Shown piece after piece: positions 25,128 through 42,400 of a stretch of 64,000 bases of DNA. Within the stretch, counting starts at the first letter, position 1. Each line of letters begins with the position of its first letter. The position numbers and the translations under genes are program-made. Below the pieces are notes generated by a model. It searched no databases, had not been told where the DNA came from, and was given only the letters and a program-made list of their open reading frames with translations. This DNA comes from an uncultured Acidobacteriaceae bacterium (GTDB taxonomy: Bacteria; Acidobacteriota; Terriglobia; Terriglobales; Acidobacteriaceae), in contig CAVXMZ010000010.1 of assembly GCA_963763145.1 (NCBI GenBank), positions 22,141-86,140 on the forward strand. Direction: 5' to 3'.

Positions 25128-25933
25128 TGTCTGATCTGCAAACCGTTGCCAGCAGTGCCAAATACCAGCACATCCTGTTCGAGGCCGAAGGGCCGATAGC
25201 GATTGTGACACTGAACCGGCCGCAGCGACGCAATGCGCTGTCGCTGGAGTTAATGACCGAGCTGATCGACTGCCTGAACGAAATTGGGCGCGATCGTGCG
25301 ATGCGGGTCGTCGTGTTGCGTGCCGCCGGCAAAGTCTTCTCCTCCGGCCACGATTTGAGCGAGATGGTGGGACGCGATATCAACGAGTACCGCGAGGTGT
25401 TCGAGGTCTGTACCGAGTTGATGACGCACGTGCAGTCGATTCCGCAGCCCGTGATCGCAGAAGTGCAAGGTATCGCCACGGCGGCCGGATGCCAACTGGT
25501 GGCGACCTGTGACTTGGCCGTGGCCTCCGATCAGGCCGCTTTTGCAACCCCGGGGGTGAAGATTGGACTGTTCTGTACTACGCCGATGGTGGCGCTGAGC
25601 CGGGCAATCGGGCGCAAGCGAGCGATGCAGATGCTGCTGACCGGCGAGATGATCGACGCGGTGACCGCAGCGGAGTGGGGACTGATCAACCTGGTCGTTC
25701 CTGCCGCTGAGTTGGCGGAGCAGAGCCGCAAGCTGGCGACGCGCATTGCTGACGCCAGCTCTTTTACGGTGGCGCTGGGCAAGCAGGCCTTCTACACGCA
25801 GATTGATCTCGATCAGCCGAAAGCCTATGCCTATGCCAAAGAGGTGATGAGCATGAATTCGCTCGCTGCCGACGCGCAGGAGGGGATATCGGCGTTCCTG
25901 GAGAAACGCCCCGCGTGCTGGACCGGAAAGTGA
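25127..25933 (+). CDS. Enoyl-CoA hydratase/isomerase (crotonase) family protein
   Basis: IAIVTLNRPQRRNALS, VVLRAAGKVFSSGHDL, and the oxyanion-hole-type region GIATAAGCQLVATCDLAVAS. The ATG overlaps the upstream stop (TGATG). Confidence 0.88.
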   Translation: MSDLQTVASSAKYQHILFEAEGPIAIVTLNRPQRRNALSLELMTELIDCLNEIGRDRAMRVVVLRAAGKVFSSGHDLSEMVGRDINEYREVFEVCTELMTHVQSIPQPVIAEVQGIATAAGCQLVATCDLAVASDQAAFATPGVKIGLFCTTPMVALSRAIGRKRAMQMLLTGEMIDAVTAAEWGLINLVVPAAELAEQSRKLATRIADASSFTVALGKQAFYTQIDLDQPKAYAYAKEVMSMNSLAADAQEGISAFLEKRPACWTGK

Positions 25934-26169
25934 TCACTGCTGGGTTATTGGTGTAACATGGCAGGCCAGAGACAGTATGTGCAGTAACTTCGGATTTAAT
26001 CATCATCCTGAAGGCCCTCCTTGCGCGCTGGAGTCGCACTGGTATTACACCCTGGTGCGATGGATGGCCTGGTTGCGCCTGAGATTTGTCACCAAGTCTT
26101 CCCAAATAATCACGCAAGACGGCCACCCTCGCCGGCCCATCTAATAGGTAGCGGCGACCTAAGGCCGGA

Positions 26170-26883
26170 TCACACTGCCAGCAGGCCGGAGTAAATCGCC
26201 ATGCCCACGACGGCGTCGACGCCGATATGGTTGAGCGCTTCGATCTCGTCGTTGCGGCAAATCCCGCCAGCCGCGATCAGCTGGCGCGACGTCTTCTGGC
26301 GCAGGCTGCGGACCACATCCATCGGGATTCCCCTCAGCAGTCCCTCGGTATCAATGTGCGTGTAGAGGAAGGCGGAACAGAATGGCTCGAGCTGTTGCAT
26401 CATGGCTGCGGGCTCGATGTCCGTGATGGTCTTCCAGCCGTGAATGGCAACTCGCCCGCCGCGTGCATCGACGGCAAAGACAAGGCGCTCGATGCCGAAT
26501 CGCTCACTCAAGGCTTGGGCGAAGGTCGCGTTAATCGTTGTGCGAGGATTTCCGGCACGACCTTCGTTCGCTTGTGGGGACAGGTGAACCAAAGAGGAAC
26601 CGATGATTACTCGTTTCGCGCCGCACTCAAGCATGGCTTGCGCATCGTCCAGGGAACGAATGCCTCCACCTACCTGGCAGGGCAGCTTGCGGCAAAATTC
26701 GGCGACCAGCGGGCGATTCGAGCCGCTGCCCATGGCCGCATCCAGATCAACCAGCTGCACCAGCGGATAGCGCGAGAAGCGCGCTACCCACTCGCCGAAA
26801 TTCTCGAACTCCAGGGCCTTCTTCTCGCCTTGGACAAGCTGCACAATCCTGCCGCCCATCAGGTCAATGGAGGGAATCAGCAT
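26170..26883 (-). CDS. hisA: ProFAR isomerase HisA
   Basis: [19 protein letters not shown]..., VGGGIRS, and a C-terminal [11 protein letters not shown]. The start at 26883 overlaps the hisF stop by 7 nt. The longer track ORF reaching 27228 is an in-frame artefact inside hisF. Confidence 0.85.
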
Positions 26884-27680
26884 GCGAGCCTCACGGAGAT
26901 CCCCGCCGCGCGCAACTCCTGCTTGATGGCGTGGACCGACTCCAGTCCGAAGTGAAAGACGGACGCTGCCAGGGCCGCATCGGCAGCGCCCTGCTGGAAC
27001 ACTTCCACGAAGTGCCGCGGCTCGCCCGCTCCTCCCGAGGCGATCACGGGAATGTTCACGCTGGTGGCGATGGTGCGAGTCAGTTCGCAATCGAATCCTG
27101 ACTTGGTGCCGTCGCGATCCATCGAGGTCAGCATGATTTCGCCTGCTCCTCGTTGCTCGGCCTCGATCGCCCAAGCTTGAGCGTCGGTACCTGTCGGCTT
27201 GCGCCCGCCCCAGACATACACCTCCCACGCGTCACCACTACGCCGAGCATCGATTGCTACCACCACCGCCTGTGAGCCATACCGTTCCGCAATCCTGGTG
27301 ATCAGTGCCGGGTCGGCAACGGCGGCGGAGTTGATGGTGACTTTGTCTGCGCCGCAATCCAGGACCGAAGCCGCATCGTCCAACGAACGAATACCGCCGC
27401 CCACGGCGAATGGGATAAAGAGCTGGTTCGCAGTGCGCCGCACGGTGTCGAGCAGGGTATTGCGCGATTCAGCGGTTGCCGTGATGTCAAGCAAGACGAT
27501 CTCGTCAGCGCCCGCCGCGCTGTGGGCCGCCGCTAATTCGGCAGGATCGCCCGCATCGTGCAGCTGCACAAACTGAATGCCTTTCACCACTCTGCCGGCG
27601 TTTACGTCGAGGCACGCGATGATGCGCTTGGCCAGCGATTCAGATGGCACAGAAATTCTCCAGGATACTGATTCCGACAT
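26877..27680 (-). CDS. hisF: Imidazole glycerol phosphate synthase cyclase subunit HisF
   Basis: [59 protein letters not shown]. The start is either the ATG at 27680 or the GTG at 27650. Both overlap the hisH 3' end. Confidence 0.9.
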
Positions 27681-28230
27681 CCCCGGATTTTTCCGGATGG
27701 AATTGCACTCCGAACAGATTGCCGCGTTCCGCCGCAGCCGTGAACGGCGCTTCATAGACACATGTGGCAACCGTGTCAGCACACAGCGGGGCCCAATACG
27801 AATGCGTGAAGTAAACATAGGAGTCAGACGGAATATTCCTCAGCAACCGCGAGCGCGGTTCAATCGCGATGCGGTTCCAGCCCACGTGCGGCGATTTCAC
27901 ACGGTCGGAAAAGCGCGTGCAATTGCCGGGAAAGACCCCCAGACTGCGCAGTTCCGTGGCTTCGTCGCTGCCCTCGAACATCCATTGCAAGCCGAGGCAA
28001 ATGCCAAGCACCGGTTTCTCGCTGACGACTGCTTCCCGCAGCGCAGTGCCGAGACAGCCGCCCGTCAAGGGCAGTGTCGCCCGGAAATTGCCGACGCCCG
28101 GAATGATCAGCCGGTCCGCGGCAGACACAACATCAGCATCATCCGTCACTACACACTCGCGCCCCAGGTGCCTGACGGCCTTGAACACCGAGGCCAGGTT
28201 GCCGGCACCGTAATCGACGATGGCAATCAC
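27640..28230 (-). CDS. hisH: Imidazole glycerol phosphate synthase glutamine amidotransferase subunit HisH
   Basis: (GTG)[29 protein letters not shown] (catalytic Cys), FHPEKS. The start overlaps the hisB stop as GTGA. Confidence 0.92.
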
Positions 28231-28814
28231 AGCAGTCCTTTGGTGCTGGGCAGCATGCGCCCGAGTTGGCGATCTTTAGAGCAGGCCACGCGCAACGCGC
28301 GCGCGAACGCCTTGAACAGGGCTTCGATCTTGTGATGGTTTGACCGTCCGTAGAGAACTTTGGCATGTACGTTGGCCTTTGCGCCACGGGCGAATCCGTC
28401 GAAGAAGTCGGCAACCAGTTCCGTCTGCAAATCGCCAACCAGTCGCGTCCGAACCTTGGTGTCAACCACCGCCGCGCTGCGTCCGCCGAAATCGACTGCG
28501 ACGACTCCCAGGGTTTCGTCCATGGGCATCACGAAGTATCCGGCGCGCAGAATGCCGCGTTTGCTGCCCAGCGCCTGCGCAAACGCCTCGCCCAGGGCGA
28601 TGCCGACGTCTTCGACGGTGTGGTGCTGATCGACGTCAAGATCGCCCTTCGCCTGCAACTCAAGATCGAACGCGCCATGCCGAGCCACTAGTTCCAGCAT
28701 GTGGTCCAGGAAGCGGATGCCGGTGCTGACTTTGGCGCGACCACGACCTTCCAGGGTGAGCGCGACGCGGATGTTAGTCTCGTTGGTTTTGCGATCTATG
28801 CGCCCGCGTCTCAT
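28227..28814 (-). CDS. hisB: Imidazoleglycerol-phosphate dehydratase HisB
   Basis: [44 protein letters not shown]. The start overlaps the hisC stop as ATGA. Confidence 0.92.
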
Positions 28815-29887
28815 GCTGTCACCTCGCGCCCCAGTTCGAGTTCGCACACGATCTCTCGCAGGGCGGCAAGGAGCCGGGAAGTCTGGACGTCGTTACCTAT
28901 GGTGATGCGTACGCAGCCTTCGCAGCCCGGATCGGCAGAGCGGTCGCGAACCAGAATGCCGCGCTGCCGCATGGCCATCACGAACTGGTGGTGCTTTGCG
29001 CCAATCCGCACCAGAAGAAAGTTCGCCTGACTGGGCCAGCTGTAAAGCCCCAGCGTGCTCAATTCGGCTGCAAGCCGCTCGCGGCCGTTCTTGACTTGCG
29101 CGACGTAGCGACTGATGTGGCCGCTGTCTTCCAGTGCGGCGGGCAACACCGCCAACGCCAGGGCATTGACGCTATAGGGGGAAGATACGCGGCGCACGCC
29201 TGGCATCAGCGCGCCGGGGCCGGCCAGAATGCCGACGCGAAATCCAGCCAGTCCGTAGGCCTTCGAAAAAGTTCGGGTCACAAATAGATTTTCAAGCCTT
29301 TCGACATCGCGGATGACGGTTTCGCCGTGAAACTCGAAATAAGCCTCATCCACTAGAAGTGCGGCGTCAGGCGCGGCTGCGGCGATAGCCAGTAGTTCTT
29401 CGCGAGGTGCAGCCGTGCCGGTCGGGTTATTCGGACTGGCAAGCGCGATCAGGCGGGTCGCTGGAGTAATGGCGGCCAATACCCTTGCCAGGGAAAAGCG
29501 GAAGTCGGCGCCACACTGCACGCGAATCACCTTCGCCCCGGTTGCGCCGGCATAGATTTCGTACATGCTGAACGTGGGCGTCACCACCAGCACGTCGTCG
29601 GCCGGCTCGAGAAAGGTCTCGCACAGCAGATGAATAGCTTCATCGACGCCATTGGTGAGCAGCACTTGTTCCGGCGCCAATCCAAGATGCGCGGCGACTA
29701 CGGCCTCCACCGGCCCGCGCTCGGGATAACGTGCGAGATCGTCTGCCGTAATACTTTGCAGCCGCTCCAGTACGCGCGGCGAACATCCTTCGACGTTTTC
29801 GTTGAAATCCAGGCGCAACCCGTCGCGACGCGCGAGCGGGGGATGATATTCCTGAAGATTCCGGACCGCTTTCCTGGCGCTAAGCAT
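28811..29887 (-). CDS. hisC: Histidinol-phosphate aminotransferase HisC
   Basis: [39 protein letters not shown] (PLP Lys). The start at 29887 overlaps the hisD stop by 8 nt. Confidence 0.9.
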
Positions 29888-31121
29888 GGGTGCTCCTCGC
29901 GCGCACCGATGCGGCGTGAGCGTGCAGGCCCTCAGCCTCGGCAAGGGTGGTGATGATGGGCGCAATTTTGTTCAGGCCGGCCGCATGGAAGCGCTGCACC
30001 GTGATAATTTTGACGAAATCGTGCACGCTCAGGCCTCCGCGAAAGCGTGCTGCGCCGGCGGTAGGCAGAACGTGATTTGGTCCGGCAGCATAGTCTCCGG
30101 CAGATTGCGGTGAGTAATCGCCGACGAAAATCGAGCCTGCACTACGGAGCTCAGTAAGATCGTTATCGTCAACCGTCAGGTGTTCCGGAGCGATGCGGTT
30201 GATCCATTCGGTAGCTTGCTGTGGCGAGGCTGCAATCAGCAGGTAGCCATTTCGGCGGATCGCCTGCCGCGCGATGATGTTCCCGCGGCTTGCAAGAACA
30301 ATTGCCGATTGCACACTCTTTGCCAGGGCCGGCTTCGTGGTAATCAACACCACCACAGCGTCGGGATCGTGCTCGGCCTGCGCCACCATGTCAGCCGCAA
30401 GAAATCCGGGATCACCCTTGTCGCTCGCGAACACGGCTTCAGTGGGCCCGGCGAGCATGTCGATGGCGCAGTCAGAGCCAACCAGCTTTTTGGCAGCGGT
30501 AACAAAGCTGTTGCCGGGGCCGACAATCTTATCTACACGAGGAATGGTTTCCGTGCCGTAAGCGAGGGCTGCGACTGCCTGTGCACCACCGCAGCGATAG
30601 ACTTCGCGAACGCCAAGCAGAGCGGCCGCAGCCAACGTGGCCGGCTGTGGGCGCGGCGACGCCACGCAAATGCGCGGCACGCCCGCAACCTGCGCGGGCA
30701 CCACGGTCATCAGGAGGGTCGAGGGCAGGGGATAGCGGCCACCGGGCACGTAGCAACCAACCGCTTCCAGCGGGCGCACGATTTGACCGAGTTCACCGCC
30801 GGAGACCGGCTTGCGCCACTCGCGCGGCATCTGCCATTGGCAGAAGCGCCGGATATTCGCTGCGGCAGAGCGCAAAGCACTCTGTGTATTGCGGGGAATC
30901 GAATGCCACGCCTCGGCTATTTCCTCGTCTGAAACCCTGATGGGCTGGCCCATTGGCAGACTATCCCACAATGTGGCATAGCGAAGCAGGGCCTTATCCC
31001 CGCCGCGCCGTACGGCACGAATGGTCCGGCGCACTCGCGGTTCCACCATCTCCAACTGAGATTTGCGAGTGGCCAGAGTTACGACTGCGTTCTCCGCTGC
31101 TTTGCCCGCAAGAATCCGCAT
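29880..31121 (-). CDS. hisD: Histidinol dehydrogenase HisD
   Basis: VGCYVPGGRYPLPSTLLM, IVGPGNSFVTAAK, AGPTE, QAEHDP, GDYAAGPNHVLPT. The start at 31121 shares 1 nt with the hisG stop (TGATG). Confidence 0.92.
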   Translation of the reverse strand: MRILAGKAAENAVVTLATRKSQLEMVEPRVRRTIRAVRRGGDKALLRYATLWDSLPMGQPIRVSDEEIAEAWHSIPRNTQSALRSAAANIRRFCQWQMPREWRKPVSGGELGQIVRPLEAVGCYVPGGRYPLPSTLLMTVVPAQVAGVPRICVASPRPQPATLAAAALLGVREVYRCGGAQAVAALAYGTETIPRVDKIVGPGNSFVTAAKKLVGSDCAIDMLAGPTEAVFASDKGDPGFLAADMVAQAEHDPDAVVVLITTKPALAKSVQSAIVLASRGNIIARQAIRRNGYLLIAASPQQATEWINRIAPEHLTVDDNDLTELRSAGSIFVGDYSPQSAGDYAAGPNHVLPTAGAARFRGGLSVHDFVKIITVQRFHAAGLNKIAPIITTLAEAEGLHAHAASVRARSTHA

Positions 31122-31990
31122 CACAGCACGACCTTGTTGAGGGGATACTCGACGATGCCCTGGGCGTTGGCCGCCTTGAGCCGCGGCAGCACTTCCCAGC
31201 AAGCGGCTTCTTCGAGGATGGTGTTGACGGCGACCCAGGTGCTGTCGCTCAACTGCGAAATTGTCGGACTATTCAGCGCGGGCAGAACGCTCAGCACCCC
31301 CGGGAGATCTTCAACCTTAACGTTGAGCATCAGTCCCACGCGGCCCTGGGCTTCCATGGCGCCGCGCAACATGAGGGACAGGTTCTCGACCTTCTGGCGC
31401 GTGGCGGGTTCGGCCCAGGCCTTAGGGTTAGCGATGATCTGGGTGTTCGACTCGAGCACGGTGTCAATGATGCGCAGGCGGTTCGCCTTCAGCGAGCTTC
31501 CGGTCTCCGTGACTTCGACGATGGCGTCAGCCAAAGTGGGTGGCTTCACTTCGGTCGCTCCCCATGAAAACTCGACCTTCACCTGGATGCCTCGCTGCTG
31601 AAAGTAGCGAGTGGTGACACTGACCAGCTCGGTTGCGACCGTCGCCCCTCGAAGATCTTCCGGACGTCGGGCAGGAGAATCTTCCGGCACGGCCAGCACC
31701 CATCGCACCTTGCCGCGGCTTTGCTTGGCGTAGATGAGGTCGGCCACAGCGACCACCTCAAGTCCGCTCTCCAGCACCCAATCCAAGCCGGTGAGTCCAG
31801 CGTCGAGCGCGCCGTGATCGACGTAGCGGGCCATCTCCTGAGCGCGAATCAACATGCATTCAATCTCAGGATCATTGGTGCCGGCAAAGTACGAGCGGGG
31901 GCTGACGTAGACTTGCAGCCCAGCCCGCGCCAGCAGCGCCAGCGTTGCCTCTTGAAGACTTCCCTTGGGAATGCCGAGACGAAGTTTCAT
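31121..31990 (-). CDS. hisG: ATP phosphoribosyltransferase, long form (HisG-L)
   Basis: [33 protein letters not shown], plus a C-terminal regulatory-domain-length extension (289 aa). The start overlaps the hisI stop as ATGA. Confidence 0.9.
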
Positions 31991-32334
31991 CGCGCACCTT
32001 CAGCGGCAGGAAGCGTCAGCCTGGTGTTGAAACAGGTGCGAGCCCCGGTGTGGCAGACTACGCCTTCTCCCTCTACGTGGACGCGGCAGAGGACAGTGTC
32101 GAGGTCGCAATCCGCAGCCGCACTGATGACTCTCAGGCGGTTGCCTGAGGTCTCGCCTTTGGTCCAGAGCTGATTGCGGGTGCGGCTAAAGAAAGTTACG
32201 TACCCGCTCTGCAAGGTTTTTTCATACGCTGCCTGGTTCATGAAGCCCAGCATAAGCACCTCGCCGGTAACGTCATCCTGGACGATGGCCGGAGTCAAGC
32301 CACCCATTTTGTTGAAGTCGAGTTCCACTGCCAT
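31987..32334 (-). CDS. hisI: Phosphoribosyl-AMP cyclohydrolase HisI (monofunctional, 115 aa)
   Basis: [61 protein letters not shown]. There is no HisE (pyrophosphohydrolase) extension. Confidence 0.9.
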
Positions 32335-32351
32335 GGCGTTTCCTTTCGGGC

Positions 32352-32386
32352 AAAAACAAAAACCCCGCTGATCGGTGTCAGCGGGG
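32352..32386 (-). terminator. Intrinsic terminator (attenuator) between the His leader ORF and hisI
   Basis: Minus strand: CCCCGCTGA (32386-32378), a 6-nt loop, TCAGCGGGG (32371-32363), then TTTTTGTTTTT (32362-32352). It lies 17 nt before the hisI ATG region, which carries an AAGGAAA RBS. Confidence 0.75.
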
Positions 32387-32411
32387 GGAGGAGATCTGTA
32401 TTAAGAAATAA

Positions 32412-32480
32412 TCAGATGATCTCCGCTGACACGTTCGCCACGTGACGATGGTGATGATGGCGATGGGTCAACGAAGTCAT
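32412..32480 (-). CDS. His-rich leader peptide of the his operon (22 aa: MTSLTHRHHHHRHVANVSAEII)
   Basis: Minus-strand mini-ORF: ATG ACT TCG TTG ACC CAT CGC CAT CAT CAC CAT CGT CAC GTG GCG AAC GTG TCA GCG GAG ATC ATC TGA. Six His codons fall within eight consecutive codons. It is too short for the supplied ORF track. Confidence 0.7.
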   Translation of the reverse strand: MTSLTHRHHHHRHVANVSAEII

Positions 32481-32489
32481 GCTGAAACG

Positions 32490-32519
32490 AGGATAGAGTG
32501 CGCATCGCTTGACTGTCAA
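32490..32519 (-). promoter_or_regulatory. Candidate his operon promoter (TTGACA-18 nt-TATCCT)
   Basis: Minus strand: TTGACA at 32519-32514, an 18-nt spacer, and TATCCT at 32495-32490. The -10 lies only 9 nt upstream of the leader ATG, implying a leaderless or nearly leaderless leader-peptide mRNA. Pattern match only. Confidence 0.35.
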
Positions 32520-32583
32520 TACGACATTCCGGGGACGCGACAGATCTGAAATCATCGCCTCAAGCATCGATTCCTCGAGGACG

Positions 32584-33327
32584 CTACTGCGTGGAGGGAG
32601 GTTGGTGCAGCTTGACCGGATTCAGATCGATGCTGCTCTCCAGGATCATCTCTACCGAATCGCCGGTGGCAAGATGGACCTCGGGGCCACGAGTCAGCAG
32701 AACGGTTGCCAATCCAATGACTCCTCCGGTGGCAGCGCCGACGCCCGCACCTTCAGCGCCACCCGCGATCGCTCCGATACCAGCTCCCGGAATAGTAGTA
32801 GCTGCGATGGTGCCAGCGTCTTTGCCCTTGCCGCCCGGACCCTGAATGGTCCCCTCTTTTCCTGCAACGGTGTTGTCCTTGGAACCCGGAGTATTCTGCA
32901 CTGCACCGGGCAACATGATGGTGTAGCCGTTGGGGAAGATCATGGAAGTGAAGCTCATCTGTAGCTGGGCGCGGCCTTTGACCCGTCCCGGCCGGACCAC
33001 ACTGCGAACTTCACCCTGGACGAACGTCCCTGCGGGAATCACGATCTGGTTATTTTGGGTAACAGGGAAAGCGGTTTGAGCGTAGACGGGATCGCCCGGT
33101 CGCGCGCTCTTGCTGTTGACGCCTTGCTTCAGGGTGAGAGGAATCTTAGTTCCAGCAGCAACCGTGATGGACGGTTGGGGATCGGGCTCAGGCTTGGCTG
33201 GCACCTCAGGAGCTGCGCCGCTGCGCGAGGTGAGGTGCGGGGCATCCTGGCTGGTTTGAGCGGTGGCTGGCAAAGTGCCGACCGCAGCGCTGATGGCCAC
33301 AACAAGCAGAGCGACAACGGCTCTCAT
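32584..33327 (-). CDS. Secreted protein with a TrbI/VirB10-like beta-barrel pattern and a C-terminal glycine-zipper region
   Basis: Signal peptide MRAVVALLVVAISAAVGTLPATAQ. The pattern AGTKIPLTLKQGVNSKSARPGDPVYAQTAFPV...IVIPAGTFVQGEV...GRAQLQMSF..MIFPNGY follows, then GAGIGAIAGGAEGAGVGAATGGVIG. GGAGGA precedes the ATG at 33327. Confidence 0.4.
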   Translation of the reverse strand: MRAVVALLVVAISAAVGTLPATAQTSQDAPHLTSRSGAAPEVPAKPEPDPQPSITVAAGTKIPLTLKQGVNSKSARPGDPVYAQTAFPVTQNNQIVIPAGTFVQGEVRSVVRPGRVKGRAQLQMSFTSMIFPNGYTIMLPGAVQNTPGSKDNTVAGKEGTIQGPGGKGKDAGTIAATTIPGAGIGAIAGGAEGAGVGAATGGVIGLATVLLTRGPEVHLATGDSVEMILESSIDLNPVKLHQPPSTQ

Positions 33328-33432
33328 TGGTTCCTCCAACAGGCTGGGCGCGCTCTCCTTAGGAACTCGGAAGCGGCGGAAAAGTCGCGCACCGATTGCC
33401 TTCGCCAATCTTAGCGTTCCCAGCGGCGTGCC

Positions 33433-39449: not shown

Positions 39450-42400
39450 CTATTTCTTCTTTACCGCAATTACGTTGTCGTCCGGATTGCGGTCGATCAA
39501 CTTGTCCACGGGATCAATCCCGGCCTGCACCGGGAGCTTATCGACTGTAACGGTCAGCTCGGTCTTCTCCTGATCGATTTTGTGCTTTTGCAGATAGAGA
39601 TACTTTCCATTGGCATCCAGCACGCCAATATCGATCATGTCGTTCAAGGGAACCGCATGTTCCTCGCCCCGGCCGTTGGCGCGGAACTTCTTGGCCTCGA
39701 CTGTTAAGTGCACGTCATATTTGCCATCGGGCCGCTGTACGTAATCGGCGGAAAGGGCGCGATCGTCGTACAGGGTGATGTTCAGGAACATGTCGTCGAA
39801 CAGATACTGATATTCGGGAGGCGTCACCTTGCGGAAGTAGCCTTCCAGATCGAGCGAAGTCGGGTACGGCGGACCCTTGAAGGCAAACTCCTTCAGGAAG
39901 CCGCGAATTGCCTCGTTGACCTTGTCCTCGCCGATGTAGTCCTGTAGCGCGTACATCACCATCGCGCCCTTGTTGTAGTGAATGTATCCCTGATTGGGAT
40001 CGACATTGTACAGCGGATATTCTTCGTTGCGTTCCTGGGCGCGGCCGCGGAGATACTGGTCAAGTTCAAAGCGCAGGAACTTCTGCATTGATTCCGCCCC
40101 GAAGTGGTGCTTCATCACCATCAGCGCGGTGTACTGCGCCATGGTTTCGTCGATTGAGGTAGCGCCTTGCACGTAGCCGGAAATCACCTGATGCGCCCAC
40201 CACTGGTGTCCGGTCTCATGCGCGGTCACGTAGAAGGGAAGGTCGACCGCATCCGATTTCTTGCTGACCTTGGTGATGAAGCCGATGGCCTCCGAGAACG
40301 GAATGGTGTTGGCGAACGACTCGGCAAAGGTTCCGTAGCCCGGAAATTCGATGATGCGAAGCTGGTGGAACTGGAAAGGGCTGAAGTTCGCGGTGCAGTA
40401 GTCCAGCGTCTCCTTCATGCTCTGCATCATGTCGTCCAGGTTGAACTCGTGTCCCGGCTGGTAATAGATCTCCAGGTTGACGCCGTTCCAGTGGTCGCGG
40501 CGCACCGCGTAGCGCGCCGATTGGATTGAGTAGATGTCCAGGATGGGCGCATCCATCTTGTAATGGAAGTAGCGCCGCCCGTTTTCCACCCATTCCTTCT
40601 GAAGATATCCCGGAGCAATTGCAATCTGATCTTCACTGGTGCTGAGGGTGACGTCCAGATTGATCCAGTCGGCGTTGAAGCTGACGCTGTTGTATTGCCG
40701 CGCGGCCAGGTCATCCGGCCTCGATAGCCGGCGCACCTTCTCCAGTCCATGCTTGTGGCGCGTACTGTCGTCCGTCAATTCGATCTCGGGCGCATACCCG
40801 ATGTAAGGAAGGTAGCGATCGTTGACGAAGCTCCCGTTGCGCACAATGTCGGTATTGGGTTGCGAATTCTCGAAGCCCGGGTTGTCGTACTGCAATGCAA
40901 AATCAAGTTGAATGCGGCCATGCGGCGGCAACGGCGCGGGAAGCTTGTAAAGATAGAAGCCGAGCGATGGGTCCTCGATCAGCGCAGTCTGCCCGCCCGT
41001 GAAGTTGAGGCGGTCGATCCGAATATGGGGCACAGGCCGCGGAATGAGATCGACGGGCTGCACCGTCACGGCAATGCGGTCGATAGCTACGTTCGTCCTG
41101 TTTTCCATCCACATGGTGCCATGGGCGGAGACCGACCGCTTTTCCGGGTAGATGTCAATCTCTGTCGTCACGTCGGTAACGCGCGGTTGCGGTAGCGACC
41201 AGTACTGCCGGTATTTCTTCTCATACTGGGCGCGCCCTTCGTCGACATTGCGGGCGGTGCGATAGGGATTGAGAATGTGCGTGTTGTAGAAGATATAGCC
41301 GCCGACGCCCAGCATCAGCACGACGCAGACAGTTGCGCCTGCCATCGTCGCTCGCGAGAATCTTGCTGCCGCAAGACTCATCCGCACCCGCCAGCTGCTC
41401 TCCGTGCCTCGCACCCAGAGCAGGTTGGTCAGGATCGCCAGCAGCACTGCGGCGATTGCCCAGTAAATCCGGAACCACACGAGCGGCTGAAGGTAAGGAC
41501 CATAGCCATTCATGTCGGAATAGATGACCTGCGGTGTTTGTCCAAAGCGGTAGAGAAAATCTTCAAATCCCGCCGGCGGCAGCGCCAGCGTCGCGATGAC
41601 GTACAACACCATCACAAAATGGCCGAGGTATTTGTTGTTGACGATGGTCTGAATAAACATCGCCAGGACGCATAGAATCCAGAGCCCTATCAGCCGGTTG
41701 AAAGAGAGTTCGCGGAAGTACAACCCGAGTTCGAAGTGGTAATAGCCCTGGGCAATCTGCACGACCATGCCTGCGGCGAGGACCAGCACCACTACCACCA
41801 CCTGCACCAGCATCAGAGAAAAAAGCTTGGAGCAGAACAGCACCCAGCGCTGCAAGGGCAGCGCGTCCATCACCTGATTCAGCCGCGCGTCGCGCTCTCG
41901 CCACACCAGTTCGCCAGAGTAAAAGATGATGATGGCAATGGCGAACAGGTTAAAGCCCGCGTTGGCCAGCAACAGCATCTGGTTGGTGACTGGCCACGTC
42001 CGGGAAGCCTGCGGATTGCTTAACCCCGCAGCCGCGAAGATCGAGAACAGAAAGCCGGCCAACATCAGTACCACGAAGAAAACGTTCTTGGTAGTTTCCT
42101 TAAATTGGATCCGGGTCAGCGACAGCACATGCCGCAGAGACGCCCCTGCGGAGAATGTGGGATGCGCAATGGGCAACGCTTCCGCCGTCCGAGGCGCTTC
42201 TTTCTCGTCGACCACCTGCCGGCGTTTGCTCTTTTCGGCTGGGTAAGCAAAGGCAAACTTCCCATAGGTAATGGCCAGGAAAATGGCTCCCACGCCCAGC
42301 CATAGAGCGCGGTTTGCCAGCAGGATTCCCTGCAACGGGATGAGTTGCGTGTTGCGCTGGAACGGTGGCCAGTAGCGAGTGATACGGTCGATGGCCGCGC

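Follow-up and report, generated by a model that had tools for sequence, protein, structure and literature searches.

We analysed the region upstream of the histidine biosynthesis (his) operon in a 64,000-nucleotide (nt) stretch of contig CAVXMZ010000010.1 from an uncultured Acidobacteriaceae bacterium, which contains a candidate leader-peptide transcription attenuator; the whole of this stretch is referred to as the window. The operon lies on the minus strand in the order hisI-G-D-C-B-H-F-A, all eight genes being identified by NCBIfam, and an intergenic gap of 249 nt on the same strand separates the stop codon of the upstream gene, at 32584, from the hisI ATG at 32334. Within this gap, an initial annotation of the DNA had described a short open reading frame (ORF) rich in His codons, an intrinsic terminator and an alternative pairing that joins the two. 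Relatives were collected in one HisG-anchored scan of a species-representative genome collection, and the 80 closest of 575 (HisG identity 97-71%) were used; all 80 loci belong to Acidobacteriota, class Terriglobia. The sampled groups are Korobacteraceae-type metagenome-assembled genomes (MAGs), Candidatus Angelobacter, Candidatus Sulfotelmatobacter and Acidobacteriaceae, including the cultured Paracidobacterium acidisoli. The top matches of the window HisG are Terriglobales/Korobacteraceae-type MAGs at 97-93% identity, which bears out the apparently acidobacterial lineage suggested earlier. The window and the 78 relatives that carry a leader make up a set of 79 leaders, and paired positions were counted on their MAFFT alignment (A1).

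The leader region of the his operon

The leader and the operon that follows it consist of these features:

32412-32480, minus strand: leader ORF of 22 codons plus UGA, MTSLTHRHHHHRHVANVSAEII; a homologous ORF is present in 78 of the 80 loci
32442-32465, minus strand: regulatory block H-R-H-H-H-H-R-H, with six His codons (CAU/CAC) among the eight codons 6-13
32423-32432, minus strand: region 2, GUGUCAGCGG (codons 17-20), the antiterminator 5' strand and exact complement of region 3
32375-32384, minus strand: region 3, CCGCUGACAC (terminator 5' arm and start of the loop), the partner of region 2
32363-32386, minus strand: terminator hairpin CCCCGCUGA-CACCGA-UCAGCGGGG (regions 3:4; arms also given as CCCCGCTGA / TCAGCGGGG), -17 kcal/mol
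32352-32362, minus strand: U-tract UUUUUGUUUUU (also given as TTTTTGTTTTT), its T columns conserved in A1
31987-32345, minus strand: hisI, with its ATG at 32334 and its own Shine-Dalgarno sequence AAGGA at 32345-32341, 6 nt 5' of the ATG
26170-31990, minus strand: the rest of the operon, hisG, hisD, hisC, hisB, hisH, hisF and hisA (NCBIfam matches, ORF coordinates)

The 22-codon ORF at 32480-32412, with six His within eight codons, is exactly as the initial annotation had described it; its codons read ATG ACT TCG TTG ACC CAT CGC CAT CAT CAC CAT CGT CAC GTG GCG AAC GTG TCA GCG GAG ATC ATC TGA. The terminator with its U-tract was confirmed by a consensus scan, which independently calls a site at 32386-32363 and finds no other strong terminator-like site nearby, and the perfect complementarity claimed between codons 17-20 and positions 32384-32375 was recovered as well. 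The 146-nt leader folds with a minimum free energy (MFE) of -51.5 kcal/mol compared with -33.0 +/- 3.7 kcal/mol for dinucleotide shuffles (z = -5.1, with 0 of 200 shuffles as good), and the duplex between regions 2 and 3 (2:3) reaches -20.7 kcal/mol (z = -5.5 relative to shuffled versions of the upstream segment). The His-run mini-ORF is unique within the window. A Thr-run mini-ORF at 41746-41877 (plus strand) was considered as a further attenuator and dismissed, as it lies inside a 1240-amino-acid (aa) ORF on the opposite strand.

Conservation and covariation across Terriglobia

An ORF of 20-27 codons with 5-9 His codons occupies the same position in 78 of the 80 loci, and in all 78 of these relatives the leader is succeeded by hisI and then hisG. 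The conservation and compensatory changes upstream of hisI that the initial annotation had proposed to look for in related genomes were thus found. In the other two loci, the contig breaks off inside hisI or 63-69 nt 5' of it. In the latter (L049), the stretch 1-69 holds no hairpin followed by a T-run; either its leader lies further upstream, as in loci with a long gap, or the genome has no leader. The gap between leader stop and hisI measures 60-120 nt in 73 of the 78 loci and 160-413 nt in five, all Angelobacter-type (L034, L039, L047, L053 and L059). When ~700 kb of related loci were scanned for His runs on both strands, only four unrelated, out-of-frame matches appeared besides the 78 syntenic leaders.

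The pattern of substitution suggests, if indirectly, that the leader ORF is translated. Its His codons vary synonymously (334 CAT and 210 CAC over the 79 leaders) around an invariant CA dinucleotide, indels within the His run are multiples of three, and an ATG and a stop codon are retained in every leader. The N-terminal residues depend on the clade (MTSLT, MISFA or MQVRV). An in-frame ATG at 32567, which would open a 51-aa ORF, was rejected as the start: the extension is not conserved, and stop codons lie 2-4 codons 5' of the conserved ATG in relatives, so that the 51-aa frame is excluded and the ATG at 32480 is the conserved start.

This pattern also bears on whether the leader might be an untranslated RNA switch, a T-box or some other antiterminator that binds a transfer RNA (tRNA), a ligand or a protein, with the ORF being incidental. 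The leader does have alternative structures and no Shine-Dalgarno sequence, and his operons of Firmicutes and Actinobacteria often use T-boxes, according to the part of PMC9413887 cited here. However, synonymous His codons, in-frame indels and an ATG and stop in 79 of 79 leaders are what translation would leave, not a ligand pocket; moreover, at only ~130 nt the leader is too short for a T-box, and neither a T-box nor another Rfam family was matched on 191 nt even at E <= 10. We regard a switch of this kind as highly improbable.

Both of the competing helices are conserved as structures. Pairing was judged against shuffles and slid helices, and covariation was counted column by column on A1. 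In the terminator, 95.9% of cells are paired and five of the nine pairs show double changes; none of 500 shuffles does as well, and slid helices reach 30-48%. All 79 leaders have a G+C-rich hairpin with a T-run behind it. The antiterminator 2:3 is paired in 95.2% of cells, compared with 30-62% for slid controls, and three of its pairs covary. At one position all three strands change together: the bases of regions 2, 3 and 4 are G-C-G (46 leaders), A-U-A (20) or G-U-A (10), and three leaders deviate. In Acidobacteriaceae, region 2 has CCG (Pro) in place of UCG (Ser), and the terminator arm carries G instead of A at the partner position. Since the opposite strand compensates for this codon change, the ORF appears, in its 3' half, to be constrained as RNA and not as peptide, and the conservation of the second half of the peptide (VSAE, VLAG or VPAN) is best read as an RNA constraint.

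The same changes speak to the idea that the mini-ORF encodes a functional His-rich micropeptide, for instance a metal-binding one, and that the hairpin is an ordinary terminator or insulator with no codon-sensing switch. The length of the ORF is conserved, its His run would bind metal ions, and parts of HVANVSAE are conserved within clades. Yet the conserved C-terminal stretch coincides exactly with the strand that base-pairs to the terminator arm, a change from Ser to Pro or from VSAE to VPAN or VLAG is tolerated when pairing is retained, the N-terminal residues are freely variable, and the linkage to hisI is strict (78 of 78 loci). At E <= 10, leader peptides matched no family in Pfam (window, two relatives and the 51-aa extended ORF) or in NCBIfam (window and four relatives). 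A micropeptide is therefore very unlikely.

The invariable hairpin and U-tract also constrain the output of the leader. Control could in principle act on translation, the leader gating ribosome access to hisI without termination, much as the leaderless poly-Cys short ORFs (sORFs) of mycobacteria do; leaderless sORF attenuators that sequester a ribosome-binding site (RBS) are documented (bioRxiv 10.1101/834739), and an RBS-sequestering structure replaces the terminator in some attenuators, as described in the part of PMC9413887 cited here. In the present case, however, a G+C-rich hairpin and a conserved U-tract occur in 79 of 79 leaders, and the hisI Shine-Dalgarno sequence (32345-32341) lies 3' of the U-tract, is unpaired in the predicted folds and takes part in none of the predicted leader helices. 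We give purely translational control very little credence. Finally, G+C-rich intergenic DNA abounds in short ORFs and hairpins, and a His-rich ORF could fall next to a terminator by coincidence; the z-scores of the leader fold and the 2:3 duplex, and the recurrence of the arrangement in 78 of 80 loci down to 71% HisG identity, with covariation, contradict this, and the probability of a chance co-occurrence is negligible.

Ribosome position and the choice of structure

We consider it very probable that the leader is a ribosome-mediated (leader-peptide) transcription attenuator, which would couple expression of hisIGDCBHFA to the supply of charged tRNA-His. Computationally, it combines an ORF made up in large part of codons for the end product, an intrinsic terminator, and an antiterminator that excludes the terminator and depends on the ribosome. 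In the proposed course of events, a sigma-70-type promoter would start the RNA at the AUG of the 22-codon ORF or within ~4 nt of it, and a ribosome would translate the ORF while RNA polymerase is still transcribing the leader. When His-tRNA is scarce, the ribosome would stall in the six-His block with its 3' edge just before GUGUCAGCGG; region 2, being free, would pair with CCGCUGACAC once region 3 is made, and with the terminator 3' arm lacking a free partner, polymerase would read into hisI. When His-tRNA is plentiful, the ribosome would pass region 2 and reach the UGA, region 2 would be covered or sterically blocked, and the 3:4 terminator would form before the U-tract, ending transcription near 32352. 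The initial annotation had proposed this dependence on ribosome position, and the idea gains support from the presence of the ORF, the terminator and the 2:3 pairing, with compensatory changes, in 79 of 79 leaders.

The geometry of the leader is consistent with such a switch. In 57 of the 79 leaders, the window among them, 13 nt separate the start of region 2 from the first base of the last His codon, across clades with different peptides; ribosome footprints place the 3' edge of a ribosome that has the last His codon in its A site at about this distance. The stop codon follows region 2 by 12-18 nt in 69 of the 79 leaders and by 9 nt in the window. Nascent transcripts were folded with the RNA cut just 5' of the terminator 3' arm (the decision state) and with the ribosome position masked. 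With a ribosome at the middle His codon, 66 of the 79 leaders have their terminator 5' arm paired to region 2; once the ribosome is placed on the stop codon, this holds for 3 of 79. The nascent antiterminator of the window consists of an extended stem GUGUCAGC:GCUGACAC, followed by GGAG:CUCC and then an inner hairpin (-24.2 kcal/mol).

Three further structures accompany the two competing helices:

32466-32485, minus strand: region 1 (transcript 5' end and codons 1-5), which pairs with 32432-32412 in an outer 1:2 helix (anti-antiterminator), in the MFE fold
32435-32463, minus strand: His-codon hairpin, UCGCCAU (32463-32457) with GUGGCGA (32441-32435), in MFE folds
32390-32424, minus strand: spacer hairpin GGAGAUC...GAUCUCC between regions 2 and 3, in minimum-energy folds

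The 1:2 helix, which includes the AUG, is the RNAalifold consensus in the window clade (22 sequences, the window and its 21 closest relatives). As a family-wide feature the window form was rejected: over all clades 60% of its cells are paired, little above slid controls, and in Angelobacter-type leaders the last His codons pair locally with region 2 instead. An anti-antiterminator thus appears to be present in a lineage-dependent form. Both additional hairpins that the initial annotation had thought possible, UCGCCA/UGGCGA and GGAGAUC/GAUCUCC, are present and occur in minimum-energy folds. The His-codon hairpin is 77.8% paired over the 79 leaders, with covariation from CG (40) to UA (14), and reads UCGUCA/UGACGA in Acidobacteriaceae; it may be a polymerase pause hairpin or the inner part of the 1:2 structure. 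The Arg codon CGC of H-R-H, which gives G-C pairs of this hairpin, is conserved across clades; at codon 12 the window encodes a second Arg (CGU), a position occupied by His in its closest relatives. GGAGAUC/GAUCUCC stacks under the antiterminator in the nascent fold, so that it supports the antiterminator and does not compete with it. Clade folds show equivalent spacer hairpins of other sequence in sub-clades, an observation made without a formal count.

Two observations concern the spacer of Angelobacter-type leaders. A motif, AGCGCAAUCAUA (variants AGCACUCAUA), is near-invariant between leader stop and terminator in L027-L065 (A3 columns ~90-103); it is also found in L023-L026 and L052. A pairing of AUGAUU, at the 5' end of the ORF, with AAUCAU in the conserved spacer motif was tried in the Angelobacter-type leaders and rejected, as its 82% of paired cells come with no covariation and do not exceed shuffles.

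The predicted promoter lies immediately upstream of the leader ORF:

32514-32519, minus strand: -35 box TTGACA, from the consensus scan; TTGAC is invariant in 79 of 79 leaders
32490-32495, minus strand: -10 box TATCCT (TAnnnT), separated by 18 nt from the -35 box and by 9 nt from the ATG

TTGAC(A), a spacer of 17 or 18 nt and a TAnnnT hexamer occur in every one of the 79 leaders, and the ATG lies 6-12 nt 3' of the -10 hexamer (mode 9-10). Since the promoter abuts the ATG in every leader, the predicted 5' untranslated region measures ~0-4 nt and offers no room for a Shine-Dalgarno sequence. The leader mRNA would accordingly be leaderless or carry a few 5' nucleotides, a leader of 2-4 nt being equally possible; the almost leaderless message that the initial annotation had predicted for the window therefore appears to be a property of the whole set. 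It is conceivable, although we lean somewhat towards doubting it, that the attenuator is obligatorily leaderless, the sensing ribosome having to engage the 5' end of the emerging RNA ahead of leader folding. In that event, burial of the AUG in the 1:2 helix of the window clade would allow only one pioneer ribosome per transcript. The leader would then be a termination-type attenuator driven by leaderless initiation and conserved over the Terriglobia families sampled, and leaderless initiation in acidobacteria would have to be fast and reliable enough to time a kinetic RNA switch.

Several results weigh against attenuation or narrow the form that it could take. With a stalled ribosome on the full leader of the window, the terminator (-29.4 kcal/mol) is favoured over the antiterminator (-23.9 kcal/mol), and in the MFE structures of full-length leaders the terminator is kept in 77-91% of the 79 despite the ribosome mask. 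Full-length equilibrium folding therefore does not discriminate between ribosome positions, and nascent-transcript folds were used in its place. Masking the leader codons in folds, a check put forward in the initial annotation, accordingly separates ribosome positions on nascent transcripts but not on full-length leaders. The annotation's picture of a 10-bp antiterminator competing with a 9-bp terminator stands in that the two pairings are mutually exclusive, but not in that the antiterminator wins by strength. With the terminator favoured at equilibrium even when the ribosome is stalled, the switch would have to be kinetic and set by the order in which the segments are synthesized. Kinetic switching is the usual assumption for classical attenuators, and here, too, attenuation would depend on co-transcriptional kinetics. 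In free nascent folds, region 2 is already paired with region 3 in 44 of 79 leaders. In most relatives, just 0-4 nt of region 2 fall within the footprint of a ribosome positioned on the stop codon, so that the block of region 2 would have to be steric or based on timing. No single form of the classical 1:2 anti-antiterminator is shared by all clades. Finally, a leader without a Shine-Dalgarno sequence has to rely on leaderless or near-leaderless initiation, and for this phylum leaderless genes are only predicted, at 9.7-19.4% in three acidobacterial genomes (PMC3160421).

As to the surrounding genes, hisI is the first gene of the operon and encodes a monofunctional protein of 115 aa without a HisE part; its stop overlaps the hisG start (31987-31990). 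The ORF that follows hisA (25764-26126) is not recognisable as a his gene, and hisE must therefore be elsewhere. The stop of the upstream gene (32584-33408, minus strand) is separated from the -35 box by 65 nt. The 274-aa product of this gene contains a TrbI-like domain (PF03743, E = 3e-9) and is rich in Gly in its C-terminal part; a scan of this protein against NCBIfam gave no match.

Relation to known leaders

Neither the Rfam family His_leader (RF00514) nor the T-box (RF00230) is matched at E <= 10, whether 2 kb or the 191-nt leader is searched; the matches obtained are all below threshold and driven by the terminator. The best of them, an alignment to anti-hemB (RF02837) at 32355-32457 (minus strand), was discarded, as it scores 21 bits against a gathering threshold of 49.5 and mainly aligns the terminator and U-tract, a generic terminator resemblance. 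A full-text literature search found no report of a his leader in Acidobacteria, although one may exist outside the library searched. A survey of his regulation from 2022 names attenuators in Proteobacteria and some Firmicutes, T-boxes in Firmicutes and Actinobacteria, and HisR, and leaves Acidobacteria unmentioned in the part cited here (PMC9413887). From its sequence, the leader is a lineage-specific family, conserved over the sampled Terriglobia, whose proposed mechanism class is well known; what sets it apart are the promoter-abutting ATG without a Shine-Dalgarno sequence, the unusually clear three-way covariation and the conserved 13-nt spacing.

Acidobacterial regulation is almost unexplored, and the element fills a gap for an abundant soil phylum, though it will not surprise specialists in attenuation. 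It provides a predicted histidine-responsive mechanism for the his operon of the Korobacteraceae-type, Angelobacter, Sulfotelmatobacter and Acidobacteriaceae genomes sampled. The RNA and its small ORF form a family that Rfam, Pfam and NCBIfam currently miss and that could enter annotation, and, in a cultivable acidobacterium, they may offer a compact natural model in which to study leaderless initiation and the coupling of transcription to translation.

The his attenuator of Salmonella follows a six-segment scheme, A-F; that of the window is simpler, with 2:3 opposed to 3:4 and a spacer hairpin. Enterobacterial hisL resembles the window in having a short His-run ORF before the his operon, a terminator 5' arm that is common to the antiterminator, and a ribosome whose position decides between them (described in the part of PMC9413887 cited here). 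By contrast, the window leader shares no detectable sequence or structure similarity with the enterobacterial his leader RF00514, the first structural gene is hisI and not hisG, the stop codon lies 3' of region 2, and there is no Shine-Dalgarno sequence, the promoter abutting the ATG.

His leaders have also been described in three lineages of Firmicutes (hisZ/hisS of the B. cereus group, Peptostreptococcaceae and Erysipelotrichales). Like the window leader, they combine an independently evolved His ORF with a terminator and antiterminator, were detected through comparative genomics and have no match to RF00514 (cited parts of PMC2965389 and PMC9413887). They belong to another phylum, are unrelated in sequence and carry 3-5 consecutive His codons (PMC9413887, in the part cited), compared with 5-9 in the acidobacterial leaders, and the cited parts of these sources report no leaderless arrangement, unlike the near-leaderless start predicted here. 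The acidobacterial leader would be one more independent invention of the His-leader design. His T-boxes serve the same class of operon and likewise choose between terminator and antiterminator according to the charging of tRNA-His (cited part of PMC9413887); in a T-box, a large structured RNA itself senses uncharged tRNA, with no translation involved, whereas the window leader is a short coding ORF.

The poly-Cys sORFs of mycobacteria (Canestrari et al., bioRxiv 10.1101/834739) share with the window an sORF that lies (in the window, by prediction) at or near the 5' end without a Shine-Dalgarno sequence, at which a stall on the cognate codons remodels the RNA, or would do so in the window. Compared with these sensory sORFs, the leaderless start of the window leader is deduced from promoter spacing. 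The mycobacterial sORFs sense Cys and act on translation, whereas the window leader would sense His, with a hairpin and U-tract as its output and the hisI RBS left free.

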